The position numbers and the translations under genes are program-made. The notes beneath the pieces were generated by a model, which had not been told where the DNA came from, did no database searches, and worked only from the letters and a program-made list of their open reading frames with translations. From contig JAUZPR010000005.1 in the NCBI GenBank assembly GCA_030705825.1, positions 1 to 63,059 on the forward strand: a DNA stretch of 63,059 nt. Reading direction: 5' to 3'. Numbering within the stretch: position 1 is the stretch's first letter; every line of letters starts with the position of its first letter. Source of the stretch: Bacillota bacterium (GTDB lineage: Bacteria > Bacillota > Clostridia > Acetivibrionales > JANLFN01). Below are positions 11,281-62,533 of the stretch, in pieces.

Positions 11281-11304
11281 AAAAATGAGCGGAAAGCTCC
11301 GCCC
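11281..11304 (-). terminator. Intrinsic terminator after rpsO
   Basis: Minus strand GGGCGGA-GCTT-TCCGCTC followed by ATTTTT, immediately after the rpsO stop. Confidence 0.6.
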
Positions 11305-11311
11305 ATTTTAA

Positions 11312-11575
11312 TTATTTTCTGAGATTAAGTTTTTCAATTATGGCACGATATCTTTCAATATCGCATTTCATCAGATAATTGAGTAAACCTCTTCTTTGTC
11401 CAACCATTTTTAAAAGTCCTCTTCTTGAATGGTGATCCTTTTTGTGTGTCTGAAGATGATCATTCAAATGATTGATTCTTTCTGTCAAAATAGCGATTTG
11501 AACTTCCGGCGAACCGGTGTCGTTATCGTGAAGCTTGTACTTCTCGATAATTTCCTGTTTTAATTCCTTAACCAT
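11312..11575 (-). CDS. rpsO: 30S ribosomal protein S15
   Basis: 87 aa, TGSPEVQIA...[23 protein letters not shown]. Confidence 0.97.
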
Positions 11576-14566: not shown

Positions 14567-14811
14567 AATTTCAAAGATAGGGACATCCAGGTCCCTTTTT
14601 CAGCCATTCCATCTTTGGTTTAATGACAAAAACAAAAGAGTGCTTAAAGAATATCTCTTAAGCACCCTTGGCTAAGTTTTCTATTTATTAATTTAATAAA
14701 TAATAACACAAAGTACTTAATTTTACAATACTTGTTTTACGTTAATTAATGAACCTTTGATTATGCTGAGGAATATTATGTTAATAAAGTTGATGTTATG
14801 GAGGAGTAACT

Positions 14812-15012
14812 ATGTACCAAATCCCAAATCTTTATGGTAGTCAGGGTGCTATGCCCATGAATATGCCTGCATTTCAACTTGCTCATGCTTATGTTCCTGT
14901 TCAACAAATGACCTGCATATATCCACCTATGGTGGGTTTGAAGCAGGGTACTATCTTCCCTGAACTTGATAGACCTTACGGTGTTGAACCTGAGTATACG
15001 GTTGATGCATAA
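14812..15012 (+). CDS. cotJA: Spore coat-associated protein CotJA
   Basis: 66 aa (AHAYVPVQ...GTIFPELDRPY), GGAGG RBS, first gene of a cotJABC arrangement. Confidence 0.8.
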   Translation: MYQIPNLYGSQGAMPMNMPAFQLAHAYVPVQQMTCIYPPMVGLKQGTIFPELDRPYGVEPEYTVDA

Positions 15013-15025
15013 AGGAGGCAGAAAT

Positions 15026-15280
15026 ATGGATATGGATTGCGAAAGAGCCATAAGAGAGGTTATGGCTGCAGATTTTACCTGTTATGATCTTGCACTTTAT
15101 CTTAATACACACCCTTTTGATACGCGTGCTCTGGCTGTTTATTACAGTTCGGTACAGAGAGCTCGCAGTCTAAGGGAAAACTACGAAAGAATGTGTGGAC
15201 CGTTAACTGCACAGGCAAGTACCAGGACCTTGAATTGCTGGGAATGGGCGCTTACCCCCTGGCCCTGGGAATGGCAGTAA
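15026..15280 (+). CDS. cotJB: Spore coat protein CotJB
   Basis: 84 aa from ATG 15026 (AAGGAGG at 15012-15018), motif DLALYLNTHPFD. The track start 14966 overlaps cotJA and lacks an RBS. Confidence 0.8.
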   Translation: MDMDCERAIREVMAADFTCYDLALYLNTHPFDTRALAVYYSSVQRARSLRENYERMCGPLTAQASTRTLNCWEWALTPWPWEWQ

Positions 15281-15427: not shown

Positions 15428-16015
15428 ATGTGGATTTATGAGAAAAAACTTGAATATCCGATTAAAATTAGAACGTGTAATCCAACAATGGCAAAATATA
15501 TAATCACTCAATACGGCGGTCCCGATGGAGAACTTGGTGCTTCGTTACGATACCTGAGCCAGAGGTTCAGCATGCCTACTAACGAGGCCAAAGCGACTTT
15601 GAATGACATAGGCACTGAAGAACTTGCTCACCTTGAAATGGTTGGCTCAATGGTTTATCAACTGATAAGGGGCGTCCCTGTAAAAGAGCTCGAAAAGTAT
15701 GGCTTAGGCTCTTATTTCACTCAGCATGACCATGCCATATACCCTGTTGACGCTTCTGGCGTACCCTATTCTGCTGCCTCCTTCCAATCGATGGGTGATC
15801 CGGTTGCCGACCTGACTGAGGACCTGGCGGCAGAACAAAAAGCAAGGGCTACTTATGAAAATCTCATTAACCTGACAGATGACCCTGATGTAATAGATCC
15901 TTTAAGGTTCCTTAGAGCAAGAGAAATAGTGCATTTCCAGCGCTTCGGTGAGACGCTTGATAAAGTCCAGGATGAGCTGGGCAAGAAAAAATACTTTGTA
16001 AACAAACCTTATTAA
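15428..16015 (+). CDS. cotJC: Manganese-catalase-family spore coat protein CotJC
   Basis: 195 aa, YGGPDGELGASLRYLSQRF...EELAHLEMV...EIVHFQRF, AAGGAGG RBS. Confidence 0.9.
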   Translation: MWIYEKKLEYPIKIRTCNPTMAKYIITQYGGPDGELGASLRYLSQRFSMPTNEAKATLNDIGTEELAHLEMVGSMVYQLIRGVPVKELEKYGLGSYFTQHDHAIYPVDASGVPYSAASFQSMGDPVADLTEDLAAEQKARATYENLINLTDDPDVIDPLRFLRAREIVHFQRFGETLDKVQDELGKKKYFVNKPY

Positions 16016-18677: not shown

Positions 18678-21002
18678 ATGGATAATCGCTTAAATGCGAG
18701 GCCAAAAATCGCTTTTTTTCAATCCGATCTGGAGGGTGCTTTTTCCGACACACTCAGTAAAATTGCTATTGCCTTATCTGAAATATTCGATGTAAATTTG
18801 TATATTTTCCCCGGAAAACCTTTAAAGCCCGTTGATAGCTATGATTACCAATATAACGTCATATATAATTATGCAACCAAAAACTCTGTAGACGCAATAA
18901 TTCTGGCATCAGGCACCTTGGGCAAATATGCTTCGAATACTGAATTAAAGCAATTTGTCTCTAAATTCAAATCCATTCCTGTCATAAGTACTGCAGTTAA
19001 AGTCAATGGTGTACCAAGTATTACAATGGACAACTATTATGGACTTAAGCAGGGAATCAACCACTTGATAAAAGATCACGGCAAACGTAATATTGCTTTT
19101 ATCGGAGGGCCTAAAAAAAGTCATGAGGCAGAGTCCAGGTATTTGGCCTATATTGATGCTTTAAAGGAAAATGATATAAAATTTGATCCAAGTTTGGTTT
19201 ATGAAGGTGATTTTTCTTCAATTTCAGCTGTTGAAGCCATACATACTTTTATTGATATAAATAAAAAATATTTTGATGCTCTGGTTGCTTCAAATGATAA
19301 CATGGCTCTGACTGCCATTACGGAACTGAACGCAAGAAATATCAAGGTTCCTCAGGATATATGTGTAATCGGGTATGACAACACTAATGAATCACAGAAC
19401 TCATCCCCTGCTTTAACAACTGTCAGGCAGCCCTTGTTTGAAATGGTAAAGAAAGCCTTTCAAATGGCATTACAAATGATAAATGGTACTGTCATAAATA
19501 ATGATATTGTTATGTCATCTGAATTAATTATAAGAGAATCCTGCGGCTGTTCATCAAAAATAATGAATACTGCAGCCGGATCTACTGTTCCGGGTATAAC
19601 CCATGAAAAAAACGATCCCAGATACTTAGCTGATAAATTTATTGAAGCCCATATTGAAAACCTGCATAATACATCAATAATAATAAAGGGTTTTTATGAT
19701 TTTGTATTCCAGTTTATTGATTCAGTCCATAAAAACGCCTGTACCTCAGACAATCTGGATACTTTATTCAAAGCTTTTAAAAATATTTTTAATTTTAATA
19801 AAATTCCTGAAGACAATATCACTAAAATTCATGATATTGTCTCAGACCTTACTGATAATATCCGTAGTATTGAAGGTTTTGTTAAAAACCAGAAGGTTTG
19901 GAATGATTTCATTAACGCACTGCATATTTTTATTACCGATTCAGTAATCAAATGCAAAAACAGCAGATGGATGTTATACCATTATGATATCCAATACTTG
20001 AGGCAAACATTAAACCGAATGATTTCAACCCTTACAAGCATTGAAGATCTTTTAAAATCAACTGTACCTGGTTTGAAGCATCTTGGTATAAAAAGAATGT
20101 ATATATATCTTTATAATCATGAAATAGTACATAATTTTGATTGTATATGGAAAAAACCCGACAAGCTTAATTTGGCATTTGCTTATGAAAAGGAAAGGAT
20201 TCTTGACTTAAATAACATCCAAAGACAGATTCCCAGTGATAGATTGTTGAATAATGAATTGATTCAAATTAAAGAGAAGCATACCATATTGATTAATCCA
20301 ATTTTCTTTATGGAGGAGCAGCTAGGCTTGATTTTATGCGAGCTTGATACCACCGACAAGTATTTGTTTGAATCCATAGTACTGGAAATCAGCTGTGCAA
20401 TCAAGCTGTCCCTGTTAATTAACAATTACAAGAAAACTACAGAAAAACTTATGGTTACAAAAAAGAGTCTTGAAGAACGTGGAAAAAACCTTAACACTCT
20501 ATCTTATACCGATTCTCTTACGAATCTTTATAACCGTCGTGGTTTTCTAAACATTGCAAGGCAAAGCCTCGACCTTGCTAAGAACATGGGACGTTCAGGG
20601 CATTTGTTTTTCCTTGATATTGACAGGTTAAAAGTAATTAATGATGCCTACGGACATGATGAAGGCGATAAAGCCATAAAGGCAGTAGCAGATATTTTAC
20701 GCAGAACATTCAGGAATTCAGACGTTATTTCAAGGCTTGGCGGAGATGAATTTACCATTTTGACAATTGATACTTATTCAGATTTGGTACCTGCCATTAA
20801 AAACAGGTTTGAAAATAATTTTAATTTATATAATCTAAATTCCGGCAACCCTTACAAATTGTCAGTAAGTATGGGAGTCTTACCCTTTAATACAGAAGAA
20901 AACATAACGGTTGAATATCTACTTAAAATTGCTGATACCCGTTTATATGAACAAAAAGTGCTTAAGAAAAACCATAGAATTGCTGAGCATACCGATGTAT
21001 AA
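18678..21002 (+). CDS. Cytoplasmic LacI-type sugar-binding (PBP1) domain, GAF-like middle region and GGDEF diguanylate cyclase
   Basis: No signal peptide, TM segment or HTH. PBP1 motifs (VASNDNMALTAI...VIGYDNT...LTTVRQP). C-terminal GGDEF (LYNRRGF, RLGGDEF) with intact I-site RNSD five residues upstream. Confidence 0.8.
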   Translation: MDNRLNARPKIAFFQSDLEGAFSDTLSKIAIALSEIFDVNLYIFPGKPLKPVDSYDYQYNVIYNYATKNSVDAIILASGTLGKYASNTELKQFVSKFKSIPVISTAVKVNGVPSITMDNYYGLKQGINHLIKDHGKRNIAFIGGPKKSHEAESRYLAYIDALKENDIKFDPSLVYEGDFSSISAVEAIHTFIDINKKYFDALVASNDNMALTAITELNARNIKVPQDICVIGYDNTNESQNSSPALTTVRQPLFEMVKKAFQMALQMINGTVINNDIVMSSELIIRESCGCSSKIMNTAAGSTVPGITHEKNDPRYLADKFIEAHIENLHNTSIIIKGFYDFVFQFIDSVHKNACTSDNLDTLFKAFKNIFNFNKIPEDNITKIHDIVSDLTDNIRSIEGFVKNQKVWNDFINALHIFITDSVIKCKNSRWMLYHYDIQYLRQTLNRMISTLTSIEDLLKSTVPGLKHLGIKRMYIYLYNHEIVHNFDCIWKKPDKLNLAFAYEKERILDLNNIQRQIPSDRLLNNELIQIKEKHTILINPIFFMEEQLGLILCELDTTDKYLFESIVLEISCAIKLSLLINNYKKTTEKLMVTKKSLEERGKNLNTLSYTDSLTNLYNRRGFLNIARQSLDLAKNMGRSGHLFFLDIDRLKVINDAYGHDEGDKAIKAVADILRRTFRNSDVISRLGGDEFTILTIDTYSDLVPAIKNRFENNFNLYNLNSGNPYKLSVSMGVLPFNTEENITVEYLLKIADTRLYEQKVLKKNHRIAEHTDV

Positions 21003-21025
21003 CCGACTAATTAAGGAGTCTTTTT

Positions 21026-23344
21026 ATGATTAATGATAAAAACAAAAGACTTACTATAGGTTTCTTTGTGGGAGGAAGGAACTCATCATATTCCGATCTG
21101 CTTTGCAGAGGTGCTATTGAGACAGCTGAAGAAAATGATGTTAATCTGGTAATTTTTCCCGGCAGAGCTTTGAAACCTGAGCTTTATTCTGATTACATGT
21201 TCAGATATGAATATCAGTTCAATGTCATATATGATTATGCCAGCAGCAAGAACCTGGATGCTCTTATACTTTCATCAGGTATGCTGAACAGTTACACTTC
21301 AAGTGAGGCATACAGTGAATTCTGTTCAAGATACAAACCCCTTCCCATGGTAAGCATAGCCTCTCCGGTCGAGGGTCTTCCCTGCGTTTTGATAGATAAC
21401 AGCTATGGTTTAAAACAGGGTATCCATCATTTGATACAAATTCACAACAGAAGAAGAATAGCTTTTATTTGTGGTCCGGAAAAAAACGGTGAAGCAGATG
21501 AAAGATACAATGCTTATGTTACTACGTTAAGAGAGAACGGAATTCCATTCGATCCGGATTTGGTTTGTCCGGGGGACTTTACCCGTTTTTCTGCTAAATA
21601 TGCAATACGACTGCTTAAGGATATAAGAAAAACAAAATTCGATGCTGTTGTGGCTGCTAATGATGATATGGCTATGGCTGCTCTTGAGGAATTAATATCG
21701 AGAAATATATCGGTTCCTGAAGACGTGAGTGTTATTGGTTTCGATGACTTTCCTGAAACAAGTTATTCAATACCAAGTCTGACTACTGTCCATCAGCCTA
21801 TTTATGAACAGGCAAGACTTGCAGTAAACATGGCATTGGATCTATTGAATGGTAAACCTGTAAATAATGAAGATCTAACTACGCAACTTGTAATAAGAGA
21901 GTCATGCGGATGTAATTCCAATGCCGTTAAAACTTTTTCAATAACGGAAAGCACTTCGGTAACGGGAGTTAATCCTGATATTTTATCTATTATTAATAAT
22001 TTCACAGAAGCAAATTACAAAAATATTTCTTCCGGAGTTTTTTGCGAAAATGGAATCAGGAATTTTATTCAAAAACTTTTTAATTATATAAGCAATGAGA
22101 AATTTGATGACTCATGTATAAATCAATTTGTACTTGAATTTAAAGCTTCAATCAATATGTCCGAAATTAATGACACGAACATTATGTTGATTCAGAACCT
22201 TGTCACCGTTTTAAGGAAGAATGTGACTTCCTTTAGTATGAGCGATTGTACTCTTACAAGCATTGAAGAATTATTTTCACTTCTCCAGAAACTAATTTCA
22301 GACTTGATTGTCAAATACTATGCAAATCATCTTGTATCTCATCATTATAATATTCAGTATCTGAGGATGCTGCTGAATAGAATGATATACAGTATTCATA
22401 AAAATGAAGAACAGTTAAATCCCATTAAAATTTATCTTAAAAAGCTAGGATTGGAAAGTTGCTATATTTTCCTTTATGATTATGAACTCACCCATATAAA
22501 AGGTGATGAATGGGTTAATCCTGAATTTTTCAACCTTGTAATGGGATATGATAAGTCGGGCATTTTTGATATTAATAAAATCAATACCCGTATTTGCTGT
22601 AGTGATGTATTAAACGCAGATCTCATTCCCGAGGACAGAAGATATACTCTTTTTATCAACCCTCTATTTTTCCTTGAAGAACAGATTGGTGTTATAATTT
22701 GTGAATCCAATCTTAACGATTATCATATTTTTGATACACTGGTAGTGGAATTAAGCTGCGCAATAAAGCTTTCCAGCCTGGCAAAAGCTAATGAGGAGCT
22801 GGAGAATCAGCTTATAGATTCAGTCATAGAACTTGAGCATTATAATCAGGTTTTGGACAGTCTTTCTCAAACAGATGAATTGACTAACCTTTATAACCGA
22901 CGTGGTTTTCTAAACCTGGCAGCGCAAAGTCTTGAACTTGCCAGAAACATGGGAAAAACCGGCCATCTTTTCTTCGCTGATATGGACGGACTGAAGAAAA
23001 TAAATGATAATTATGGACATAATGAAGGAGACAGTGCTTTGATAGCTGTAGCAGAAATATTAAGAAAAACCTTCAGAAAATCCAATATAATAGCAAGGCT
23101 TGGTGGTGATGAGTTTACCGTATTTTCGTTTGATACCAGCAATAAACTTATTCCAACAATTCAATCTAAACTTAATAAATACATAGATGAATATAACCAC
23201 AGTTCCGGAAAGCCCTATAAAATTTCAGTAAGTATAGGAGTTGTACCCTTTTCCTTTGAAGACAATGTTACAATAGAAAGCCTGATGCGTCAGGCAGACA
23301 GACTTTTGTACAAACAAAAAAATCTTAAGAAAAAATCAAGGTAA
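21026..23344 (+). CDS. Paralogous cytoplasmic PBP1 / GAF-like / GGDEF diguanylate cyclase
   Basis: Same architecture and length (772 versus 774 aa), collinear with the upstream gene. RLGGDEF is intact but the I-site position reads RKSN. Confidence 0.8.
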   Translation: MINDKNKRLTIGFFVGGRNSSYSDLLCRGAIETAEENDVNLVIFPGRALKPELYSDYMFRYEYQFNVIYDYASSKNLDALILSSGMLNSYTSSEAYSEFCSRYKPLPMVSIASPVEGLPCVLIDNSYGLKQGIHHLIQIHNRRRIAFICGPEKNGEADERYNAYVTTLRENGIPFDPDLVCPGDFTRFSAKYAIRLLKDIRKTKFDAVVAANDDMAMAALEELISRNISVPEDVSVIGFDDFPETSYSIPSLTTVHQPIYEQARLAVNMALDLLNGKPVNNEDLTTQLVIRESCGCNSNAVKTFSITESTSVTGVNPDILSIINNFTEANYKNISSGVFCENGIRNFIQKLFNYISNEKFDDSCINQFVLEFKASINMSEINDTNIMLIQNLVTVLRKNVTSFSMSDCTLTSIEELFSLLQKLISDLIVKYYANHLVSHHYNIQYLRMLLNRMIYSIHKNEEQLNPIKIYLKKLGLESCYIFLYDYELTHIKGDEWVNPEFFNLVMGYDKSGIFDINKINTRICCSDVLNADLIPEDRRYTLFINPLFFLEEQIGVIICESNLNDYHIFDTLVVELSCAIKLSSLAKANEELENQLIDSVIELEHYNQVLDSLSQTDELTNLYNRRGFLNLAAQSLELARNMGKTGHLFFADMDGLKKINDNYGHNEGDSALIAVAEILRKTFRKSNIIARLGGDEFTVFSFDTSNKLIPTIQSKLNKYIDEYNHSSGKPYKISVSIGVVPFSFEDNVTIESLMRQADRLLYKQKNLKKKSR

Positions 23345-24559: not shown

Positions 24560-27500
24560 CTACATATATATAGTACCCAATTTAACAAGATTTTCAACTT
24601 CTTTTTCAGGCAATGGTTTGCTCAGAAGATAGCCCTGAACAATGTCACAATCGTTGTTACTTAGGAATTCGAACTGTTCCCTGGTTTCCACGCCTTCAGC
24701 AATAACAGATATGTCCATGACATGGGCTATTGCAATTACCGCCTTTGTTATAGCCTCCTGATTGTTGTCCTTCCCTATGTCATTTATAAATGCCTTATCT
24801 ATTTTCAACATATCAATAGGTATTCTTTTTAGATAATTCAAGGAAGAATACCCTGTACCGAAATCATCCAGTGATACTTTGATTCCCATGGCTTTTAAAG
24901 TATTAAGTGACCGTACGACAGATTCCAGATCCTGTATGGCTATACTTTCCGTAATTTCCAATTCAAGAAATTTAGGTTCGAGATCTGTTTCCTTCAGAAC
25001 ATCCTTTATGGTCGAAACTATATCGCATTGATAAAATTGTTTTACCGAAAGATTGACAGATATATTCACACGACCATATCCCTGATCTTGCCAATCCTTA
25101 ACCTTCTTACATGCTTTTCTAAGCACCCATTCCCCTATAGGAATTATCAAACCTGTTTCTTCCGCTATTGGTATGAATTTTGCCGGAGGAATCATTCCCA
25201 GCTTGGGATGGTTCCACCTGAGCAGTGCTTCAAGACTGACTATTTTACCTGTGTTTATATCCACCTGAGGCTGATAATGTATATCGAGCTCATCCCTTAC
25301 AATAGCATGCCTCAGACTTCCTTCCATTTCATAGCGTTCCTGGTACCTTACATTAAGAGATTCACTAAATACCTGATAGTTATTCTTACCAAGTTCCTTT
25401 GCATGATACATGGCCGTATCTGCATTCTTGAGCAGTGTCTGCTGATCATCTCCGTCATCCGGATAAACCGTTATACCAATACTTGCAGTAATGTAAAACT
25501 CACATCCGTCGAGAACAACCGGCTGCTGAAGCTGCTGTACTATTCTCTGTGAAATAAGTTTTGCCTCATCAACACTGGTTATCTTTTGCTGAAGTATAAC
25601 AAATTCATCACCGCTGAGTCTGGCAATAGTATCACTTTCTCTTATGCACGATTTGATAAGTTCTCCTATGTATTTAAGAAGTATATCTCCCGAAGCGTGC
25701 CCCAGTGTATCGTTAATTGTCTTGAAATTATCCAGGTCAAGGAAAAGCAGCGCTCCCTTGTATCCGTACCTTCTGGCCTGGTTAAGTGAAACATTTAAGC
25801 GATCGGAAAACAAAGTACGGTTTGGAAGACCTGTTAAAGAATCATAAAACGCCATAACCTGTATTTTTTCTTCTGCTTTCTTCCTATCGGTTATGTCTGT
25901 ATGGGATCCTGCTATTCTTATTGGTTTTCCGCTCTTATCTCGTATTGCCTGCCCACGGGTGAGGAACCACTTGTACTCGCCTGATTTGCTTCTGATTCTG
26001 TACTCTATTCTAAAATTAGGTATTACAGCCTCAAGATAATCATCCACTGTTTTCATAACCGGGTCATACTCATCCGGATGCAGCAAATCAAACCATGCAC
26101 TTGATTTATTTTTTATTTCCCAGTCCTCATAGCCCAAAATTTCCTTCCATCTTGATGAAAAATACATTTCATCGGTAATAACATTCCAATCCCAAAGGCC
26201 GTCGTTTGCGCCTTCAAAAGCCAGCCTGTACCTTTCCTCACTTGCAGTCAGGGCTTCCTGACTTGCTTGAAGCTGGATATACTGCTGCTTCAGTTCCTCT
26301 TCTGCAGCTGCAAGTTCCTCATGAGTAGCCTCAAGTTCGTCATAACTGTTCTGAAGCTTCATCTCCGCTTCCTTACGTTCTGTTATATCGTTTCCGGTAG
26401 TTAAAATTACTTCTACATTGCCATCTGAATCGTATATGATATTGTTGTTCCAAAGGACTGTAAGAATTTTTCCGTTTTTGCACATGATTTGAGTTTCATG
26501 GGCTTTATTCAATTCACTCATCACAATTTTTTCGTAAGCCTTTTTAGTAGATTCATAAATATTTTCAGGTATAAGAAAATCCAGCCAGCTTTTTCCCTTT
26601 ATTTCTTCTGTAGAATAGCCGGTAAGGTTTTCGGCAAATTTGTTCATCCTGATTATCTCACCGTTCTTATCGCCGACAATAATTATGATATTGGCTTCTC
26701 TAACTATACTGTCTGAAAAATCACGTTCCTTTTTGAGGAGAATTTCTGCGTTGACTTGTGCCGTGATATCATGGAATACAATAACCGTACCCTTGATTTG
26801 CCGGTTATTCTTAATGGGAAGAACTGATATTGATACAACATATTCAGTATCATTACCATCAGACAACTTTAACATCTTTTTTTTGAAATTTATCTCTTCC
26901 CCTTTTAGCAGGCTTTCCATAGGTATTTCCACCAACGAGTGTGTTTCTTCGGAATATAGCTTCAAAACTTCATTTATTTTTTTACCTATCAGTAAGGTAT
27001 CATCAAGATTCAGATACATTTGTGCCGTAAGATTTGCATAAATAATCCTGCCTTCATTATCTGCCGTAATTACTGAATCATCAATGCTTGATAATGTAGT
27101 TTGCAGCCACTCATGCTCTCTGAACAATTCCTTGTTTATCTTTAAAATCTTTCGTCTAAGAAAGCGTATTATGTATCTCAACGATATTAAAGAAACAAGA
27201 ACAAGCACACCTATAATAATTAAAATATTGCGCGTCGAAGCATAATAGTCCTCAGAGTGCGAAAGGAAATATTTCTGGTATAATTCTTCATATACACCGC
27301 TTCCCTTCAGGTCCTTAATCCTTTTGTTTATATACGTTACCAGGCCAGGACTGTCCTTGCTTACAGCATAAGCTAAATCTTCCGGAAAAAGTTTACCTTG
27401 TTGAAGGGTTATCAAACCCTTTGCATTTTCTAAAATCAAAGCATAATTTACAGCATTTTCATCCTCGAACAAAACCTCAATTTGATTAGAAACTAGTGCT

Positions 27501-27997
27501 CTTGTTGCACTTTCAATGTCTGGATATGTTTTATAAGTTTTAATACCAAGTTTATTTTTTAAAATACTTTCGGAGTTATGTGATCTCACTACGCCAATAC
27601 TGAAGTTCGACAGAGTATTCAAATTTACCTTTTTATAATTTTTGCGGGTGAAAATTCCAATATAAGTCTTAAGTACGGGATTTGAGAATAGAACATCGCT
27701 TTTTCTTGTATCATTGATTTCAATAAGTCCGCATGTATCGGCCATACCGGCTTTAATACTGCTGTATACGTCATCCCAGTTCCCTGTATATTCTTTTACT
27801 CCATAATCATAGCCGTTGAAAACAAGGGTTGTTAAATCAGCATCAAATCCTGTGGGATTATTATTGGATGAGTAACTATACGGGGGATAATTATTTTCGG
27901 CATAATAAGTAATATCCTTTTTCTGAGCATATATGGAACCTATGTTTAAAAGAAAAACCAATATTGCGGAAATCAGAATTTTAGATTTGAAATTCAT
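24560..27997 (-). CDS. Multidomain c-di-GMP protein: periplasmic solute-binding domain, TM, three PAS domains, GGDEF, EAL
   Basis: Signal peptide from MNFKSK (GGGGGA RBS before ATG 27997). SBP family-3-like domain and one TM. PAS repeats separated by a coiled coil. GGDEF variant RLSGDEF with I-site RESD. EAL domain (LEALLRW, DDFGTGYSS, EGVETREQ). Confidence 0.85.
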   Translation of the reverse strand: MNFKSKILISAILVFLLNIGSIYAQKKDITYYAENNYPPYSYSSNNNPTGFDADLTTLVFNGYDYGVKEYTGNWDDVYSSIKAGMADTCGLIEINDTRKSDVLFSNPVLKTYIGIFTRKNYKKVNLNTLSNFSIGVVRSHNSESILKNKLGIKTYKTYPDIESATRALVSNQIEVLFEDENAVNYALILENAKGLITLQQGKLFPEDLAYAVSKDSPGLVTYINKRIKDLKGSGVYEELYQKYFLSHSEDYYASTRNILIIIGVLVLVSLISLRYIIRFLRRKILKINKELFREHEWLQTTLSSIDDSVITADNEGRIIYANLTAQMYLNLDDTLLIGKKINEVLKLYSEETHSLVEIPMESLLKGEEINFKKKMLKLSDGNDTEYVVSISVLPIKNNRQIKGTVIVFHDITAQVNAEILLKKERDFSDSIVREANIIIIVGDKNGEIIRMNKFAENLTGYSTEEIKGKSWLDFLIPENIYESTKKAYEKIVMSELNKAHETQIMCKNGKILTVLWNNNIIYDSDGNVEVILTTGNDITERKEAEMKLQNSYDELEATHEELAAAEEELKQQYIQLQASQEALTASEERYRLAFEGANDGLWDWNVITDEMYFSSRWKEILGYEDWEIKNKSSAWFDLLHPDEYDPVMKTVDDYLEAVIPNFRIEYRIRSKSGEYKWFLTRGQAIRDKSGKPIRIAGSHTDITDRKKAEEKIQVMAFYDSLTGLPNRTLFSDRLNVSLNQARRYGYKGALLFLDLDNFKTINDTLGHASGDILLKYIGELIKSCIRESDTIARLSGDEFVILQQKITSVDEAKLISQRIVQQLQQPVVLDGCEFYITASIGITVYPDDGDDQQTLLKNADTAMYHAKELGKNNYQVFSESLNVRYQERYEMEGSLRHAIVRDELDIHYQPQVDINTGKIVSLEALLRWNHPKLGMIPPAKFIPIAEETGLIIPIGEWVLRKACKKVKDWQDQGYGRVNISVNLSVKQFYQCDIVSTIKDVLKETDLEPKFLELEITESIAIQDLESVVRSLNTLKAMGIKVSLDDFGTGYSSLNYLKRIPIDMLKIDKAFINDIGKDNNQEAITKAVIAIAHVMDISVIAEGVETREQFEFLSNNDCDIVQGYLLSKPLPEKEVENLVKLGTIYM

Positions 27998-28134
27998 TTT
28001 ATTCCCCCACACTAGTAAGCCGTGCTAATTGTTTTCAATATGGTTGCAAAAATATTAATTATTATATTTATAATTATAAAGTATTAAATCCATATTTCAA
28101 CATTTTTTTACAATTATCCGTATTTTAGCTAACC

Positions 28135-33892: not shown

Positions 33893-36800
33893 TTATTTGC
33901 TCTTAACAATGGTTATAACCATTTTCTCGCCATTTATATTCCATTCTTTTTTATAGCCTTCGATGCTGCCCTCGGTAATTTCTTCGGCCAGAACGTCATT
34001 TGTGATTTCAGAAGCATTCCGTTGCATTATGCCTTTGATTGTATCATTACCGTCAAAGAACACCTTGATATGGTCCATTACCTCAAAATCCGCTTCTTTT
34101 CTCATTGTCTGGATTTTACTGATTATCTCGCGTACAAAGCCTTCCTCTATAAGCTCGGGACTCAGGTTAGTATCGAGTACTACAGTAACCTCCTTGTCTG
34201 CTTCAGATACGAAACCCTGTTTCTGGGTAACCTCGGTTAAAACATCGGTTTCAGCCAATTCTACTTTATTACCATCGACCAGGATTTTTGCTGTCTCTCC
34301 CTTACCAAAAGGTACAAGCAGCAAATCCGATTCAATTTCACTGAGGACCTTTCCTATCTGTGGTACCAGCTTGCCGTATTTCGGGCCCAGGGTTTTAAGC
34401 TGGGGTTTGAATTTATATGCCGTAAAGGCCTTGGTATCATTGGTAAACTCGATTTGCTTGATGTTAAGCTCATCCTCTACAAGTTCAATATACATTTGGG
34501 GCATTGTAAAGCCCGATTTTACATACATTTTACCTATAGGCTGCCTGTTCTTTATATTGGCAGTATTTCTACAGGCACGTCCAAGTACGACCAATTTGAG
34601 GACATTTTCCATGTTTTCTTCAAGTTCCCTGTTGATGATCTTTTCATTGCTTACAGGGAAATCACAAAGATGTATGCTGATAGGTGCATTCCTGTCAATA
34701 TTCCTTACAAGGTTACCATATATTTCTTCAGCCATAAAAGGTATGAACGGTGCCGAAAGCTTTGCAACAGTAGTCAGAACAGTATATAAAGTCATATATG
34801 CATTGATCTTGTCCTGTTCCATTCCCTTTGTCCAGAAGCGCTCCCTGCTTCTTCTTACATACCAGTTGCTGAGTTCATCGGTGAAATCCTGGATTGCTCT
34901 TGCCGATTCAGTAATCCTATACCCTTCAAGTCCCTTGTCAACGGCAGCGATCAAGGAATTAAGCTTTGAAAGTATCCATTTGTCAAGTACAGCCAGTTTT
35001 TCAAAATCCAATTTATAATTAAGAGGATTGAATTTGTCTATGTTTGCATAAAGTACATAGAATGCGTAAGTGTTCCACAGGGTTCCCATGAACTTTCTCT
35101 GTGCGTCACTTACTGCATCCTCATAGAAACGGCTTGGCAGCCATGGTGCGCTTGTCGTATAGAAATACCAACGAACGGCATCCGCGCCCTGTTTATCCAG
35201 CACGACCCACGGATCTACGACATTTCCCTTGTGCTTGCTCATTTTCTGTCCTTCCTTGTCCTGTACAAGTCCAAGAACTATTACGTTCTTAAAGGCAGGT
35301 TTGTCAAACAAAAGTGATGAAATAGTGTGCAGTACATAGAACCAGCCTCTTGTCTGGTCAAGCGCTTCACTGATAAAATCCGCAGGATAATTATCTGCAA
35401 AAATCTCCTTGTTTTCAAAAGGATAGTGCCACTGTGCATAAGGCATGGAACCGGAATCGTACCAACAGTCTATAACCTCGCTAACCCTCTTCATCTTTCC
35501 GCCGCATTTTTCACACTTAAGATAAACATTGTCTATATAAGGCTTGTGAAGCTCAATATCATCGGGCACATTTTCTCCCATTTCCTTAAGCTCTGCCCTG
35601 CTTCCTATAACATGCCTGTGACCGCATTTGCATTCCCATATTGGTAGTGGAGTACCCCAGTACCTTTCTCTGCTAAGTCCCCAGTCCACATTATTTTCAA
35701 GGAAATTGCCAAAACGTCCTTCTCCTATGCTTTCAGGATACCAGTTGATTTTTTTGTTGTTTTCAATAAGCTTGTTTCTTATTTCAGTAGTTTTTATAAA
35801 CCAGGTATCGCGAGCATAATACAAAAGCGGTGTGTCACATCTCCAGCAGAACGGGTATGAGTGCTCGTAATCAAGGACCTTGTAGAGCAGGTTTCTGCCT
35901 TCAAGATGCTTGATTATATCGGGATCCGCATCCTTAACAAATACACCCTTCCAGGGAGTTACCGAGTCAACAAATTTTCCTTCTTCATTTACCAGCTGCA
36001 CAAACGGGAGATCATTATTTCTTCCGGTTCTGGCATCGTCTTCACCGAAAGCAGGTGCAGTGTGAACTATACCTGTACCGTCGGTAAGTGTTACGTAATC
36101 TGCTGTTACAACATAATATGCTCTCTTTTTGGGTTCAGTGAAATTGAATAATGGCTCATAGTCCATTCCTACAAGATCCTTACCCTTACATTTATCCAAT
36201 ACCTTGTATTCTTCCTTCAGCACTGTTGGAGCAAGTGCTTCAGCCAGAATATATACTTCATCTCCGCACTGTGCTTTGATGTAAGTTTCAGCAGGATTAA
36301 CAGCAAGTGCAACGTTTGAAGGCAGCGTCCAGGGAGTTGTTGTCCATGCCAGCAGGTATACCTGATTTTGGCCTTTTACAGGGAATTTAACATAAATAGA
36401 TGGTTCCTTTACATCCTTGTACCCTTGTGCAACCTCATGGCTTGACAATGCTGTTCCGCATCTCGGGCAGTAAGGTACTATTTTGTGTCCCTTGTACAGG
36501 AGGCCTTTGTCCCAAACCTGCTTCAAGGACCACCAGACAGATTCTATATAATTGTTGTCATAGGTTATATAAGGGTTTTCCATGTCTGCCCAGTAACCTA
36601 CCCTGTCACTCATTTTTTCCCATTCTTTTTTATAAGTCCAGACACTCTGCTTGCATTTCTGGATAAACGGTTCAACCCCGTAATCCTCGATCTGCGGCTT
36701 TCCGTTTATACCCAAAAGCTTTTCAACCTCAAGCTCAACAGGTAGTCCGTGAGTATCCCAGCCGGCCTTTCTTAGCACCTTGTAGCCCTTCATGGTTTTG

Positions 36801-37012
36801 TACCTTGGTATGATATCTTTAATTACTCTCGTAAGAATATGGCCTATATGAGGTCTTCCGTTTGCTGTAGGAGGCCCGTCATAGAATGTGAAGGTCGGAC
36901 CGCCTTCCCTGTTTTTAACACTCTTTTCGAAAATATCATTCTCTTTCCAGTACTTCAATACTTCCTGTTCTCTGTCAACAAAATTCAAATTCGTAGAAAC
37001 CTTTTCGTACAA
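33893..37012 (-). CDS. ileS: Isoleucine--tRNA ligase (long, type-2-like form)
   Basis: 1039 aa, HIGH motif PHIGH, KMSKS variant KMSKH, Cys clusters CPRC and CWRC. Confidence 0.97.
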   Translation of the reverse strand: MYEKVSTNLNFVDREQEVLKYWKENDIFEKSVKNREGGPTFTFYDGPPTANGRPHIGHILTRVIKDIIPRYKTMKGYKVLRKAGWDTHGLPVELEVEKLLGINGKPQIEDYGVEPFIQKCKQSVWTYKKEWEKMSDRVGYWADMENPYITYDNNYIESVWWSLKQVWDKGLLYKGHKIVPYCPRCGTALSSHEVAQGYKDVKEPSIYVKFPVKGQNQVYLLAWTTTPWTLPSNVALAVNPAETYIKAQCGDEVYILAEALAPTVLKEEYKVLDKCKGKDLVGMDYEPLFNFTEPKKRAYYVVTADYVTLTDGTGIVHTAPAFGEDDARTGRNNDLPFVQLVNEEGKFVDSVTPWKGVFVKDADPDIIKHLEGRNLLYKVLDYEHSYPFCWRCDTPLLYYARDTWFIKTTEIRNKLIENNKKINWYPESIGEGRFGNFLENNVDWGLSRERYWGTPLPIWECKCGHRHVIGSRAELKEMGENVPDDIELHKPYIDNVYLKCEKCGGKMKRVSEVIDCWYDSGSMPYAQWHYPFENKEIFADNYPADFISEALDQTRGWFYVLHTISSLLFDKPAFKNVIVLGLVQDKEGQKMSKHKGNVVDPWVVLDKQGADAVRWYFYTTSAPWLPSRFYEDAVSDAQRKFMGTLWNTYAFYVLYANIDKFNPLNYKLDFEKLAVLDKWILSKLNSLIAAVDKGLEGYRITESARAIQDFTDELSNWYVRRSRERFWTKGMEQDKINAYMTLYTVLTTVAKLSAPFIPFMAEEIYGNLVRNIDRNAPISIHLCDFPVSNEKIINRELEENMENVLKLVVLGRACRNTANIKNRQPIGKMYVKSGFTMPQMYIELVEDELNIKQIEFTNDTKAFTAYKFKPQLKTLGPKYGKLVPQIGKVLSEIESDLLLVPFGKGETAKILVDGNKVELAETDVLTEVTQKQGFVSEADKEVTVVLDTNLSPELIEEGFVREIISKIQTMRKEADFEVMDHIKVFFDGNDTIKGIMQRNASEITNDVLAEEITEGSIEGYKKEWNINGEKMVITIVKSK

Positions 37013-52980: not shown

Positions 52981-54846
52981 TTATTTTCTCATTATTCTTT
53001 TAACTTCGGATACAACTGTTTCATAATCCAGGCCATACTTCCTGTATAGTTTGCTTCTTGCACCATGTTCTATGAATTTGTCCGGGAAGCCGAGAAGTTT
53101 TACTTTGGGGTATAAGCCTGTCCTGTTTAGAACCTCTATGACTCCGCTTCCAAAACCCCCAACTGTTGAGTTGTCTTCGATTGTTACAATTCTGCTTGTT
53201 TTTGCTGCTGATGTTATTATAAGTTTCTCGTCCAGCGGCTTGCAGAATCTGGCATTTATAACCTCTGCCGAAATACCCTCCCGGCTTAATTCATCTGCGG
53301 CTTTAAGAGCAATGGAAACCATGGTACCTACCGCAACTATTGAAACATCCTTGCCGTCCCTTACCTTAACACCTTTCCCGAACTTAACCGGCTTCTCCTC
53401 AATTACTTTTTCCTGTCCTGCACCTCTGGGATATCTTATTGCTATCGGTCCGTTATGTTCAAGCACTGCGTAATCAAGCATTTCCCTAAATTCACAGTAG
53501 TCGCAGGGAGCAAGTATGGTTATATTCGGTATGTCTCTTAAAAATGAAAGGTCAAAAAGTCCCTGATGAGTTTCCCCGTCATCTCCGATCAGTCCTGCCC
53601 TGTCAACGGCAAATACCACATGAAGGTTCTGTATTGCAACATCATGCAGCACCTGGTCAAATGCTCTCTGCAGGAAGGTTGAATAAACAGCGAAAACGGG
53701 AACCAACCCATTAGCTGCCATTCCTGCCGCAAGAGTTACAGCATGCTGTTCTGCTATTCCCACATCAAAAAACCTGTTCCTGTATTTTGTTGAAAATGGT
53801 ACAAGACCTGTTCCGTCACGCATAGCTGCAGTAATTGCAACCAACCTTGGTTCCTTTCCGGCAAGCCTTACCAACTCTTCTCCGAAAACATTCGAAAAGC
53901 TTGGCATACTCTCTACTTTAGCCTCACCGGTCTCTATTTCAAAAGGCTGTACTCCGTGGAACGCATACGGTTTTTCCTCTGCATAGGAATAGCCTTTTCC
54001 TTTTTGAGTACAAACATGTATGAATACAGGTCCTTTCATGAGCTTGGCTCTTGAAAAAACCTTTACAAGCTCCTGGATATTATGTCCATCAATGGGTCCT
54101 AGATATTTAAAGCCCAGTTCCTCAAAAATTATTCCGGGCATTACAAGGTATTTAATCAAACCCTTGGTCCGGGTAATCGCCCTGGCTGTTGCCTTTCCTA
54201 CTCCCGGGATTTTTTTGAGAAATTGGTCTACGTCCTCACGCATTTTGAAATAAAAGGGTTGTGTTCTGATTCTGCTGAGATATCTTGACATTCCACCTAC
54301 GTTTTTTGAAATTGACATCTCATTATCATTCAAAATCACTATCATTTTATTTGTTGACCTTCCAGCATCATTCAGTGCTTCAAAAGCCATTCCCCCGGTC
54401 AGTGCACCATCTCCTATAACTGCTATCACTTCATATTTTTCATCCTTAATATCACGTGCCCTTGCAAAGCCAAGAGCCGCTGATATTGAAGTACTGCTGT
54501 GACCGGTATCAAAGCAGTCATGCTCGCTTTCATTTCTCTTAGGAAATCCGGCTATTCCCTCATGCTGCCTCAATGTGCAAAACTTTTCTCTTCTGCCGGT
54601 TATTATTTTATGTACATAGGATTGATGACCCACATCCCATACTATTCTGTCATCAGGCGTATTAAATACCTTATGCAGGGCAAGCGTCAATTCAACAACG
54701 CCAAGATTGGATGCAAGATGTCCTCCTGTTTTGGAAACATTCTCTATTAAATACTCCCTGATTTCATCAGAAAGCTCTGTTAATTCCGTAATATCAAGTT
54801 TTTTTACATCTGCCGGGGAGTTAATCCCTTCAAGTAATCCACCCAC
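52981..54846 (-). CDS. dxs: 1-deoxy-D-xylulose-5-phosphate synthase
   Basis: GHSSTSISAALG and the TPP motif GDGALTGGMAFEALN. GTG start 18 nt after the oapA-like stop. Confidence 0.97.
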   Translation of the reverse strand: MGGLLEGINSPADVKKLDITELTELSDEIREYLIENVSKTGGHLASNLGVVELTLALHKVFNTPDDRIVWDVGHQSYVHKIITGRREKFCTLRQHEGIAGFPKRNESEHDCFDTGHSSTSISAALGFARARDIKDEKYEVIAVIGDGALTGGMAFEALNDAGRSTNKMIVILNDNEMSISKNVGGMSRYLSRIRTQPFYFKMREDVDQFLKKIPGVGKATARAITRTKGLIKYLVMPGIIFEELGFKYLGPIDGHNIQELVKVFSRAKLMKGPVFIHVCTQKGKGYSYAEEKPYAFHGVQPFEIETGEAKVESMPSFSNVFGEELVRLAGKEPRLVAITAAMRDGTGLVPFSTKYRNRFFDVGIAEQHAVTLAAGMAANGLVPVFAVYSTFLQRAFDQVLHDVAIQNLHVVFAVDRAGLIGDDGETHQGLFDLSFLRDIPNITILAPCDYCEFREMLDYAVLEHNGPIAIRYPRGAGQEKVIEEKPVKFGKGVKVRDGKDVSIVAVGTMVSIALKAADELSREGISAEVINARFCKPLDEKLIITSAAKTSRIVTIEDNSTVGGFGSGVIEVLNRTGLYPKVKLLGFPDKFIEHGARSKLYRKYGLDYETVVSEVKRIMRK

Positions 54847-54863
54847 TAAACTAAATCCCGCCT

Positions 54864-55508
54864 TTAGACATTCTTATGATGCTTGCTGCTTTTTTTCTTC
54901 TTTTTATTTCTGACAAAGAACTTTGTAATAACTGCGATTTTATATACTATGTAATTACTGTTATGAATAGCTATGGTTTTACCTATGGCTTTTCCCCCAA
55001 CAGTCAATGATGCTACCATTCCAGTTATGATCAAACCTGCCACGGTGGTTTCGGAAGCATTTCCCTGGCCGGCAATTTTTACAATTATATAGGCACTTGC
55101 CGTTCCGCTTATAACTCCGGCTATATCCCCAACAACATCATTACAGAAGCTTGCCACCTTATTTGCATGCTTTATCATAAGTATTGCCTGTTTTGCACCA
55201 TAAACCTTTCTAGATGCCATTGCGTGAAAAGGTGCCTCATCGGCAGCAGTTACGGCAATTCCTATTATATCAAATATAATTCCCACAAATATAATTGCAA
55301 AGACAATAATTAAAGCAATAACTGTATCTGTATTTTTAAGACCTGATGATACAAAAGATAAAAACGCCGACAGAAAAAAAGACGCAACTGTTATTAAAAT
55401 ATACCATTTTGCGTTCTCTGCAGCTGAACCTAACATCTTTACTCTGAATTTTACTCTTCTTTCTTCTTTTTCAACCTTGTGATTTTTTTCGTCTTCACGA
55501 TCACTCAA
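54864..55508 (-). CDS. oapA: OLE-associated membrane protein OapA (candidate)
   Basis: About 4 TM helices with buried acidic residues (IIFDIIGIAV, FCNDVVGDIAGV) and lysine-rich tails. Sits between the OLE-like RNA and dxs as in Bacillus halodurans. The start is uncertain: TTG 55508 or ATG 55436. Confidence 0.65.
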   Translation of the reverse strand: MSDREDEKNHKVEKEERRVKFRVKMLGSAAENAKWYILITVASFFLSAFLSFVSSGLKNTDTVIALIIVFAIIFVGIIFDIIGIAVTAADEAPFHAMASRKVYGAKQAILMIKHANKVASFCNDVVGDIAGVISGTASAYIIVKIAGQGNASETTVAGLIITGMVASLTVGGKAIGKTIAIHNSNYIVYKIAVITKFFVRNKKKKKSSKHHKNV

Positions 55509-55546
55509 AACTTTTTCACCTTTATCAATTTATGTATGGTAAAACC

Positions 55547-56152
55547 GGGTGGTAATATATTGAGTAAATTTTGCGGCTTAGGTCAGGCAGGATTTCCCCG
55601 GTTTCTACTGAAACGTCGCCGTTCCAGCGGTTTCCCTTTAAAGCATCCGCCGCATAGTTACCCTTTGCGGGGCCTGATTACCACTTAGTCCACACTGCAA
55701 TCCCCAATATATCTCTTAACAGAACAGTCTAGGAGATTTCCTCTTCAGTCTGACTGCTTCCTAGCCTCTTTTGCAAGCTTGGTTTCAAATAGCAATAATG
55801 GTTGTATATTGGCCAATATACAGCCATCCGATCCATTATCCGCCAAGTTCACTCAAGGCAGGCTACACTGTTCACAGCATCTTGCGATACCGCCTAACAG
55901 GTTTAATCCCTTCTCGTGGGGGATGTCGGATAAAGCAAGCTTTACCCGGCTTTCATCCAAAAGTAAGGGTCTCCACGGTAGAGGGGTCAACGCCCGCATG
56001 CCATTGCAGATCGCCCCTAAACCTTAACTCCCAGCATCGACCCACTACTGGGCGTAGCAAGCCGACACAAGGAACTTCATCGATGTGCCCTTTGACGGCT
56101 TTTTAGGCCCGTCTTCAGAAACAGCAGTCCTGACTAGAATACTGTACCACCC
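55547..56152 (-). ncRNA. ole: OLE (ornate, large, extremophilic) RNA, candidate
   Basis: 805-nt gap with no minus-strand ORF of 60 aa or more, visibly G+C-rich relative to flanks, many local helices. An 8-nt terminal complement (GGGUGGUA / UACCACCC) encloses 606 nt. Canonical ispA-OLE-oapA-dxs synteny. Confidence 0.75.
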
Positions 56153-56183
56153 TGTTATACACTCTAAGTAAGTACGGATATTG

Positions 56184-56192
56184 ATTATATCA
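56184..56192 (-). promoter_or_regulatory. Candidate extended -10 element upstream of the OLE-like RNA
   Basis: Minus strand TGATATAAT about 30 nt upstream of the 5' closing helix. The -35 is weak. Confidence 0.3.
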
Positions 56193-56312
56193 CAAAAGGG
56201 TGATACATAAAACATCTTATATAAGCCGATTTAACCTTAAATATGACGGATATAGCCGACAATGCATTTTACTGCTTTTATTCTTACGGCACATATCATA
56301 TGATGTAAATCA

Positions 56313-57221
56313 CTAATTGTTTCTTGAGCACAGCTTAAAGATGAGTGTTCTTAGGAATTCAGCACTGGCTCCGAAACCCTGCAGGCACTTGTCTGCTTCG
56401 GTTGTTACTTCATTAAGCAGCCTTTTGGATTCTTCCATCCCATAGATAGTTATATATGTAGATTTTAATTTTTTTGCATCGCTTCCTGTTTGCTTTCCCA
56501 TGGAAGCCAGATCGCCTTCAACATCCAGAATATCATCACGTATCTGGAATGCCAGACCTGTTTTATCTCCGAATTTTTCAATCAGGCTCATTTGTTCTTC
56601 AGATGCACCTGACAGAATGGCAGCTGCAACAGCAGGTGCTTTAAGAAGCGCACCTGTTTTACATTTATGCATGTAATGAAGAGTTTCCTTTTGTATTATT
56701 TTATTCTCAGATTCCAGGTCAACGACCTGTCCGCCTATCATGCCTGAAGTTCCTGCAGCCTCTGCAATGGCATGCATTGCAGTAAGTTTTTGAACCATAT
56801 TGCCTTCAGTTTTTAAAGCATGCTCCATCATTACTTCATATGCCGTATTCAAAAGTGCATCTCCTGCAAGAATAGCGGTTGCTTCTCCGAACACCTTATG
56901 GTTTGTCAGCCTTCCCCGTCTGTAATTGTCATCGTCCATGGCTGGAAGGTCGTCATGTATCAGCGAATATGTATGTATCATTTCAATTGCACATGCAAAA
57001 GGCAAAACATCCTTCTGATTTCCTCCCAGCATCTCGCACACAGCAAGACATATAACCGGACGGATGCGTTTTCCTCCTGCGAAGATACTGTATCTCATCG
57101 CTTCATATATGTTCTTTTCGGGTGTATCCTTTTTAGGTATTAGCCGTTCCAGTTCTTCATTGACAATTTCAATCCATGAGCCTATTTTAGCGTTGTATTC
57201 TTCTTCATTTAAGTACTGCAT
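56313..57221 (-). CDS. ispA: Farnesyl/geranyl diphosphate synthase
   Basis: First and second Asp-rich motifs LIHDDLPAMDDD and FQIRDDILD. Confidence 0.95.
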   Translation of the reverse strand: MQYLNEEEYNAKIGSWIEIVNEELERLIPKKDTPEKNIYEAMRYSIFAGGKRIRPVICLAVCEMLGGNQKDVLPFACAIEMIHTYSLIHDDLPAMDDDNYRRGRLTNHKVFGEATAILAGDALLNTAYEVMMEHALKTEGNMVQKLTAMHAIAEAAGTSGMIGGQVVDLESENKIIQKETLHYMHKCKTGALLKAPAVAAAILSGASEEQMSLIEKFGDKTGLAFQIRDDILDVEGDLASMGKQTGSDAKKLKSTYITIYGMEESKRLLNEVTTEADKCLQGFGASAEFLRTLIFKLCSRNN

Positions 57222-61906: not shown

Positions 61907-62533
61907 TTATTTGCTTCTTTGATACACCTGTATCTTATATACCGGAACATCCAGGGAAACCTGGGCTGCACTGCATAACTCCTCTCTGACCTGGGGATCG
62001 TCTGCACCGTCGGATATAATAATCACGCCTTTAACCTTGGGTTCCAATTCTTTTAGAATAATAGGCTTTTTACTGCCTCCCTGTGCTTCTTCATAAGCAA
62101 TGCTACTTTCATAATTACTCTGGTTTATATCACGTGTTCCTCCTGATGTATCTTTTTCCTGAGTATCGTTATCCGATTTTTTAACATCAACTGCCGGAAC
62201 CGATTCTTTTCCTGAATCATAGGTTATCATTACACTCACCTTACCCGCTCCGGCTATTTGGGAAAGGATACTTTCAAGCTCCTTTTCAAGATACTGCTTT
62301 TCATCCGATACCGTCGCAGCCGTGGGTGTTTCAGTGACTGTATTCTTTGCGTCAGTCAAAGTAGCGGCTTGCTTTTTGGAACCTCCGCCAAACAGTGAGC
62401 TTCCGGCTATTATAATGATTATCCCGATAATAATGGCTATTATTGAGTTTTCAATTATTTTCTTTTTATTTTTACCGTTGACCAGGTTTTGAAAAAACTC
62501 CTTTAATTTATCAAACTGTCCCATGCTTTTCAT
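61907..62533 (-). CDS. spoIIIAG: Stage III sporulation protein AG
   Basis: TM segment IIAIIIGIIIIIAG and conserved C-terminus VKGVIIISDGADDPQVREEL...KIQVY. Confidence 0.8.
   Translation of the reverse strand: MKSMGQFDKLKEFFQNLVNGKNKKKIIENSIIAIIIGIIIIIAGSSLFGGGSKKQAATLTDAKNTVTETPTAATVSDEKQYLEKELESILSQIAGAGKVSVMITYDSGKESVPAVDVKKSDNDTQEKDTSGGTRDINQSNYESSIAYEEAQGGSKKPIILKELEPKVKGVIIISDGADDPQVREELCSAAQVSLDVPVYKIQVYQRSK

Follow-up and report, generated by a model that had tools for sequence, protein, structure and literature searches.

We examined the gap between ispA and dxs in a 63,059-nt contig from a member of the Bacillota (JAUZPR010000005.1, assembly GCA_030705825.1; hereafter the window, meaning the whole stretch analyzed). 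The gap and the genes around it are read from the minus strand, and hold a predicted gene for the RNA OLE followed by a 214-amino-acid (aa) open reading frame (ORF) that we assign to its protein partner, OapA. Protein-centred annotation would leave ~800 nt blank here, next to a gene named "CorB Mg2+/Co2+ transporter". The locus in fact carries ole and oapA, which form the core of a membrane-bound ribonucleoprotein (RNP) implicated in withstanding alcohol, cold, Mg2+ and poor carbon sources. Pfam annotation gave the gene order nusB-xseA-xseB-ispA-[RNA]-214-aa ORF-dxs-tlyA(FtsJ+S4)-nadK-argR-recN. The placement of ole directly upstream of oapA, within an xseAB-ispA-dxs-tlyA-nadK-argR-recN neighborhood, is that of known OLE loci.

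An earlier sequence-only reading of this DNA had proposed, from the order ispA, RNA, small multi-transmembrane protein and dxs, that the gap encodes a structured RNA, probably OLE, with its OapA partner next to it. The Pfam assignments confirmed that order, and the basic properties of the gap were as the reading described them. Between the ispA stop (56313) and the start of the 214-aa ORF (55508), the minus strand contains no ORF of at least 60 aa, the largest being one of 56 aa at 56215..56045. The OLE interval is also richer in G+C (48.4%) than the whole window (37.1%), with sliding windows at 0.47–0.49 inside OLE and 0.33–0.39 in the immediate flanks. Neighboring coding regions reach 0.40–0.46, and the contrast is real but moderate.

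The OLE RNA

When the entire window was searched against Rfam 15, the OLE model RF01071 was the sole strong match in the ispA-oapA gap (544.7 bits, E = 5.6e-157, against a gathering score of 50), which bears out the call of a probable OLE RNA. All model positions (1–616 of 616) were covered, the match is untruncated, and the RNA measures ~630 nt. For comparison, we collected 65 loci (L001–L065) from GTDB species representatives that encode relatives of the 214-aa ORF, scanned 20 of them for OLE, and added one metagenome relative (L066). The score of the window copy falls within the spread of these relatives (427–551 bits). An alignment of the OLE loci contains 201 columns without variation among 20 relatives, of which the window copy retained 200. 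The block of near-invariant nucleotides expected of OLE (about 25% of positions) is present.

Helix P7, helix P8, a long P9 and the tip of P13 are all there, placing the copy in the full-length class rather than among the reduced variants 1 or 2 (classes as defined in PMC11332333). Membership in the OLE family further entails an ornate secondary structure of about 25 helices. The RNAalifold consensus of the 21-locus alignment comprised 167 pairs, of which 93 showed compensatory changes, and 162 of the 167 are canonical in the window copy. Taken together, the RNA in the gap reads as an intact, full-length and typical OLE.

The outermost helix was examined on its own. The sequence-only reading had pointed to perfectly complementary 8-nt ends, and GGGUGGUA and UACCACCC are indeed exact complements that enclose 606 nt. 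Because no pairs are assigned to the first 53 nucleotides in the Rfam consensus structure, this helix was tested on a separate MAFFT alignment of 21 OLE loci including their flanks. Of the cells in the 8-bp helix, 94% were paired, and five of the eight pairs showed changes on both sides (GC/AU and UA/CG exchanges), a degree of covariation that none of 500 column shuffles matched. When the 3' partner was slid by 1–3 columns, pairing fell to 33–74%. The terminal complement is the published P1, beyond chance.

Every published functional motif of OLE (L4, L5/L6, L9.3, P3 with P3.1, P13 and P14.1) was found in the window copy (Table 1). The A-rich L4 sequence CCUAAAAA is invariant in the 21 aligned sequences, and the L4 A-A contact forms dimer bridge B1 in the structures obtained by cryo-electron microscopy (cryo-EM; PMC12286853, PMC12265935). 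The loops of the two long hairpins that follow, at 56074–55977, hold conserved complementary GCC and GGC. GAUGAAG and CCGUGGAGACC, which flank these hairpins, are invariant in the alignment and mark the region of a putative non-canonical kink-turn (k-turn; J4a/5–J6/7). Kissing loops L5/L6 form a dimer bridge in characterized OLE RNAs, and the k-turn is the OapC site (PMC12265935, PMC12286853, PMC9723947). The GGCC of L9.3 is likewise conserved in the alignment; L9.3 makes bridge B3, and its palindrome covaries between GGCC, GAUC and AGCU (PMC12286853).

For the proteins, the primary determinant of OapB binding is the P13 GNRA loop with its bulge, and the P14.1 tetraloop is a weak secondary site (PMC7936274). 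RNAalifold gave P3 and P3.1 as 4 + 8 = 12 bp in the window OLE, the length of the putative membrane-spanning stem (PMC12265935). By sequence and consensus fold, all known dimerization and protein-binding determinants are thus predicted to be kept.

The reference OLE RNAs are those of Halalkalibacterium (Bacillus) halodurans, studied by genetics and biochemistry, and of Clostridium acetobutylicum and C. botulinum, known as dimers from cryo-EM (e.g. PDB 9LCR). The window copy resembles them in length, in the full P1–P15 architecture including P7–P9, in its conserved nucleotides, and in the A-rich L4, the complementary L5/L6 loops, the GGCC of L9.3, the 12-bp P3 with P3.1 and the GNRA tetraloops of P13 and P14.1. 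It shares their position between ispA and oapA-dxs and a probable proximal promoter just before P1. It departs from them by a U-to-G change at 56099, beside L4, and by the spacing of that promoter, both treated below. These differences all lie inside normal family variation.

Table 1. Coordinates of the predicted promoter, the OLE RNA with its motifs, and oapA, listed in the direction of transcription
Feature	Position	Strand	Evidence and description
Probable proximal OLE promoter TGTGATATAAT	56184..56194	−	TRTG −16 element and perfect −10, poor −35
OLE RNA gene (predicted), full-length type	55533..56166	−	Rfam RF01071 match; P1-to-P1 core 56155..55544
P1, 5' strand ACAGGGUGGU	56146..56155	−	Covariation, GC/AU and UA/CG exchanges; holds most of GGGUGGUA (56152–56145)
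P2 (56145–56134), P3 (56132–56129) and P3.1 (56124–56117), 5' strands	56117..56145	−	RNAalifold consensus, compensatory changes
P4 hairpin, A-rich loop CCUAAAAAG	56094..56113	−	A-run 56104–56100; putative L4 A-A dimer bridge B1
Long hairpin, loop ACGCCCAGU	56074–56028	−	Rfam match, alignment, RNAalifold; kissing-loop bridge by homology
Long hairpin, loop CAAUGGCAUG	56023–55977	−	Rfam match, alignment, RNAalifold; kissing-loop bridge by homology
P9 arm tip UUGGCCAA	55809..55816	−	Palindromic GGCC at 55814–55811; predicted symmetric kissing loop, bridge B3
P3.1 (55761–55754), P3 (55749–55746) and P2 (55732–55724), 3' strands	55724..55761	−	RNAalifold consensus
P13 hairpin, GNRA tetraloop GUAA (55661–55658)	55650..55670	−	Asymmetric bulge just upstream of the tetraloop
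P14.1 tip, GNRA tetraloop GCGA (55619–55616)	55614..55621	−	Sequence, alignment, RNAalifold map
P1, 3' strand ACCACCCGGU	55544..55553	−	Covariation; holds most of UACCACCC (55554–55547)
oapA ribosome-binding site AAAGGUGA	55516..55523	−	7 nt before TTG; ~10 nt past the end of the Rfam OLE match
oapA (predicted), 214 aa, TTG start	54864..55508	−	Four hydrophobic helices; motifs FDIIGIAVTAADEAPFHAMAS, CNDVVGD, TVGGKAIGK; poly-Lys C-terminal tail

The adjacent gene and its product

The 214-aa ORF begins 24 nt downstream of the Rfam OLE match and stops 17 nt before the dxs start. Its TTG start codon is supported by conserved residues that precede the first internal Met. Hydropathy revealed four hydrophobic segments (residues about 35–55, 60–88, 125–147 and 154–175), the number of transmembrane (TM) helices that had been counted in the sequence-only reading, and the AlphaFold2 (AF2) model is all-helical (helices 29–56, 62–97, 103–148 and 151–182). 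A DxxxD motif, DVVGD, occupies residues 124–128. Both D124 and D128 are invariant in 37 homologues from Clostridia and in a 15-sequence set that includes Bacilli and reaches Virgibacillus, Alkalihalobacterium, Alkalihalobacillus, Gracilibacillus, Ornithinibacillus, Thermovenabulum and Thermaerobacter. In the same two sets, DEAPFHAM and TVGGKAxGK likewise form invariant blocks, shared by Clostridia and Bacilli. The frame in the window is intact, with every family-invariant residue. There are 9 K/R in the 24 residues of the C-terminal tail (RNKKKKKSSKHHKNV) and 10 K/R in the N-terminal 35 aa; OapA proteins are expected to bear positive charges clustered on their cytoplasmic face.

OapA is described as a protein of four TM helices, CNNM-like yet scoring below MpfA, with a DxxxD motif that CNNM domains lack (PMC11332333). 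The Pfam CNNM family (PF01595) matched the ORF at 20.8 bits, below its cut-off of 28.4. CBS-pair and CorC_HlyC gave no Pfam match in the protein, which ends at residue 214, and an NCBIfam scan assigned it to no family. A search found 4,721 homologues; several databases name homologues as CorB transporters, with "Mg2+ and Co2+ transporter CorB" as the NCBI label. In all 21 loci scanned, Bacillaceae included, the homologue is immediately preceded by a full-length OLE. On the strength of these features and of the 21/21 adjacency, the ORF is identified as OapA, the partner that had been predicted, and the CorB labels are, judged from the sequences, over-annotation of a weak CNNM similarity.

Set against the published description of H. 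halodurans OapA, the protein agrees in its position directly after ole, its four predicted TM helices, its basic tail and its CNNM likeness below the Pfam threshold. D124 and D128 correspond by motif to D100 and D104, the residues changed in the dominant-negative PM1 mutant of H. halodurans (D100A + D104A; PMC9723947). A charged N-terminal extension of ~24 aa shifts the numbering between the two proteins, and the window OapA has a TTG start and a poly-Lys C-terminus. Identity to Bacillaceae homologues is 45–50%, and to the OLE-adjacent homologues from Alkalihalobacterium, Alkalihalobacillus, Virgibacillus, Gracilibacillus and Ornithinibacillus it is 46–49%. Compared with the CNNM/CorB/MpfA transporters, to which it shows the weak TM-domain similarity scored by PF01595, OapA has four TM helices rather than three, carries DxxxD, and lacks CBS-pair and CorC_HlyC.

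Promoter and transcription

Upstream of P1, the sequence-only reading had taken TGATATAAT at 56192–56184 as a hint that the RNA has its own promoter. The two preceding bases extend this element to TGTGATATAAT, a Gram-positive TRTG −16 motif with a perfect −10, and its −35 is poor (TTTTAT, 17-nt spacing). The TGATATAAT element was missed by a consensus promoter scan, which requires a −35, and was assessed by its conservation across loci instead. Of the 51 loci with enough upstream sequence, 31 carry TGNTA[TC]AAT in the 125 nt that precede OLE; the expectation, estimated from the remaining sequence of these loci, is 0.0097 per 125 nt. The looser TGNTANNNT was found in 46 of the 51 (0.14 expected). 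The metagenome relative L066 also carries a −16/−10 element upstream of its OLE. The hint therefore gained support: the extended element is probably a proximal OLE promoter, of a −16/−10 type that is widespread directly upstream of OLE in Clostridia and Bacilli (the 31 loci above).

Transcription is predicted to start near 56178–56175, ~20–25 nt before P1. The −10 element of the window lies ~47 nt before the position equivalent to GCAGUAU. In Bacilli this distance is ~29 nt, so the window OLE should have the longer 5' leader. Across loci, the extended −10 of Bacilli is nearly fixed at about −29 (−27 to −31) from the GCAGUAU anchor, and that of Clostridia ranges from −22 to −95. This variable distance in Clostridia points to 5' leaders of differing length.

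In B. halodurans, a proximal promoter with high-level output was shown experimentally, the 5' ends of OLE falling close to the beginning of P1; OLE is also co-transcribed with its neighbors (PMC3413148). A terminator scan of the window found no terminator-like site on the minus strand at 54600–56500, a range that spans ispA to dxs. Read-through from xseA-xseB-ispA is probable, as no terminator separates them from OLE, and the 24-nt gap between OLE and oapA, also free of terminators, makes one primary transcript very probable. OLE as an isolated transcription unit was rejected on the same empty scan. The most likely arrangement would combine upstream read-through with a strong internal promoter, OLE being released or stabilized as a discrete RNA. 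A U-tract after the 3' strand of P1 was considered as a 3'-end signal and dropped: several Clostridia loci have it, Bacilli do not, and such tracts are nothing unusual where the DNA is AT-rich.

Proposed function, alternatives and genomic setting

The interval very probably represents a functional ole-oapA module, and no counter-evidence to its identification as ole-oapA was found. By homology with characterized systems (PMC3413148, PMC9723947, PMC7936274, PMC10898510, PMC12286853, PMC12265935), the RNA would fold into two domains joined by P3/P3.1 and form dimers via the A-A bridge of L4, kissing of L5 with L6 and the palindrome of L9.3. OapA dimers would bind it (2:1 binding) and hold it at the cell membrane, with P3/P3.1 as the proposed bilayer-spanning stem. 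Two further proteins encoded elsewhere in the genome, OapB at the P13 GNRA loop and OapC at the k-turn, would also bind. The resulting RNP would aid adaptation to membrane and ion-balance stress, such as short-chain alcohols, cold, excess Mg2+ and poor carbon sources. For the biochemical step, we consider most likely a hypothesis from the literature, in which the RNA would modulate a CNNM-type Mg2+/ion-handling activity of OapA or the coupling of OapA to other partners. This preference draws on the similarity of OapA to CNNM, the Mg2+ phenotypes and the anticorrelation of OLE with the Mg2+ transporter MpfA (PMC11332333).

The case has several weaker points. The AF2 model of OapA is only of moderate confidence (predicted local distance difference test, pLDDT, 66). 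When the PDB was searched with a sequence profile of OapA, neither OapA nor CorB entries came up; the charged N-terminus spuriously matched designed trefoil-knot proteins, and there was nothing else. Foldseek gave MtCorB (7M1T/7M1U), also reported for H. halodurans OapA, as all four of its top matches for the model in the PDB; since these matches are not significant (E 0.3–0.8, TM-score about 0.32), we count them as consistent only. Neither OapB (KOW/YbzG) nor OapC (L7Ae/YbxF) occurs among the small ORFs of the 63-kb window (S15, YjbR, DinB_2, DUF5665 and similar), as expected of genes that sit in translation operons. The mechanism proposed for this locus would, moreover, be borrowed from other species. 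Finally, at 56099, beside the A-A dimer bridge of L4, the window lacks a U that is invariant elsewhere.

That last position holds G in the window and U in all 20 aligned relatives and in L066, and is the sole mismatch among the 201 invariant columns. It falls on the 3' side of the P4/L4 loop (CCUAAAAAU), where the top G-U pair of P4 becomes G-G. Such a broken pair is what a decaying, non-functional remnant that still scores against the model might show. We regard decay as extremely unlikely, given a full-length match that scores within the range of its relatives, the retention of 162 of the 167 pairs and of all but one of the 201 invariant columns, the intact oapA frame with all its family-invariant residues, and the promoter element in place. 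Lineage-specific functional differences are improbable as well, if somewhat less so: G56099, or the ~20–25-nt 5' leader made from a promoter without a −35, might alter dimer stability or expression, which would then differ from those of the OLE RNAs studied so far.

Transcription into oapA suggests another possibility, that the RNA is no stand-alone product but a long cis-acting 5' leader, riboswitch-like or an attenuator, controlling oapA-dxs. The 24 nt between the OLE match and oapA, the missing terminator and the very probable shared primary transcript are all compatible with it. Yet no expression platform (terminator/antiterminator or a helix sequestering the ribosome-binding site) was found here, and the OLE of H. 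halodurans, one abundant and highly stable RNA species, acts in trans within an RNP, and ole deletions there can be complemented from a distal locus (PMC3413148). The pattern of conservation, which follows protein-binding and dimerization sites (PMC12286853, PMC7936274), also speaks against a leader, and we hold this possibility to be very unlikely.

Scarcely any credence goes to the third alternative, an ordinary CNNM/CorB Mg2+/Co2+ transporter that merely happens to lie beside OLE. The NCBI labels of the homologues, the weak Pfam CNNM match and the lead of MtCorB in the Foldseek ranking would fit it. The CNNM score, however, stays beneath its threshold, the protein has only 214 aa with neither CBS-pair nor CorC, and it bears the DxxxD that CNNM domains lack (PMC11332333); OLE, besides, precedes every one of the 21 scanned homologues. 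Even added together, remnant, leader and transporter retain only a small share of the probability, and a functional ole-oapA module is the reading we prefer.

Few bacterial RNAs that still lack an assigned biochemical function are as large as OLE, and one more typical copy makes that function no easier to test. The sequence-only reading overstated the matter in holding that a new host and variant has value. Thousands of OLE copies are already catalogued (2,822 OLE-bearing GTDB genomes, PMC11332333; 8,585 non-redundant sequences, PMC12286853), which leaves the value of a further host or variant small: one more sequence for covariation, the sign that a −16/−10 promoter before OLE is widespread, and a helix-by-helix coordinate map of the locus.

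Beyond the operon, one flank holds spoIVB and spo0A, and the opposite flank DUF2273, two asp23 genes, spoIIIAH and spoIIIAF; dpaA/B are also present in the window. The sporulation genes fit a spore-forming member of the Clostridia, and a host within the Bacillota, the phylum whose anaerobic or extremophilic members are the expected carriers of OLE. A 208-aa ORF without a Pfam match (61907–62533, minus strand) sits between spoIIIAF and spoIIIAH, the usual position of spoIIIAG. By OapA, the named relatives are Anaerobacterium, Acetivibrio, Pseudoclostridium and metagenome-assembled genomes of Eubacteriales, all Clostridia. The best OapA match reached 64% identity among GTDB representatives and 72% overall (P0006; ENA ERZ28600768, GCA_023397675.1), and OLE of GTDB representatives is 68–85% identical to that of the window. 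The copy comes from an uncultured Clostridia lineage, which may be little sampled.

The nearest OLE found is that of L066 (91% identity, 541 bits), in the same synteny as in the window. Its ispA-OLE spacer (L066 2690–3340) measures 651 nt at 32% GC, against 146 nt in the window. Terminator-like hairpins occur in it, among them GTCGGTGGAACCGAC, which a T-run follows, and CCGTGGGTTTTAACCCACGG. The spacer of L066 holds no ORF of at least 40 aa and no Rfam match above threshold.

Elsewhere in the 63-kb window, no MpfA-type CNNM was found. The genes pnp (PNPase, 706 aa) and rpsO (S15) lie at 8821–11575 (minus strand), about 45 kb from ole; PnpA is a candidate OLE-interacting protein in the literature, and nothing in the window ties pnp to ole. 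A 91-aa ORF outside any Pfam family (14776–15051, minus strand) adjoins a manganese-catalase-like gene (15428–16015). A T-box leader (RF00230, 37142–37395, minus strand; 126.5 bits against a gathering score of 93) stands directly upstream of an ileS-like, 1039-aa class-I aminoacyl-tRNA synthetase with a DUF5915 C-terminus (37012..33893). A cyclic-di-GMP gene cluster at 11732–12961, 18678–23344 and 24560–28012 encodes an EAL protein, two tandem paralogous GGDEF proteins with periplasmic-binding domains (774 and 772 aa), and a 1150-aa SBP-PAS-GGDEF-EAL protein.

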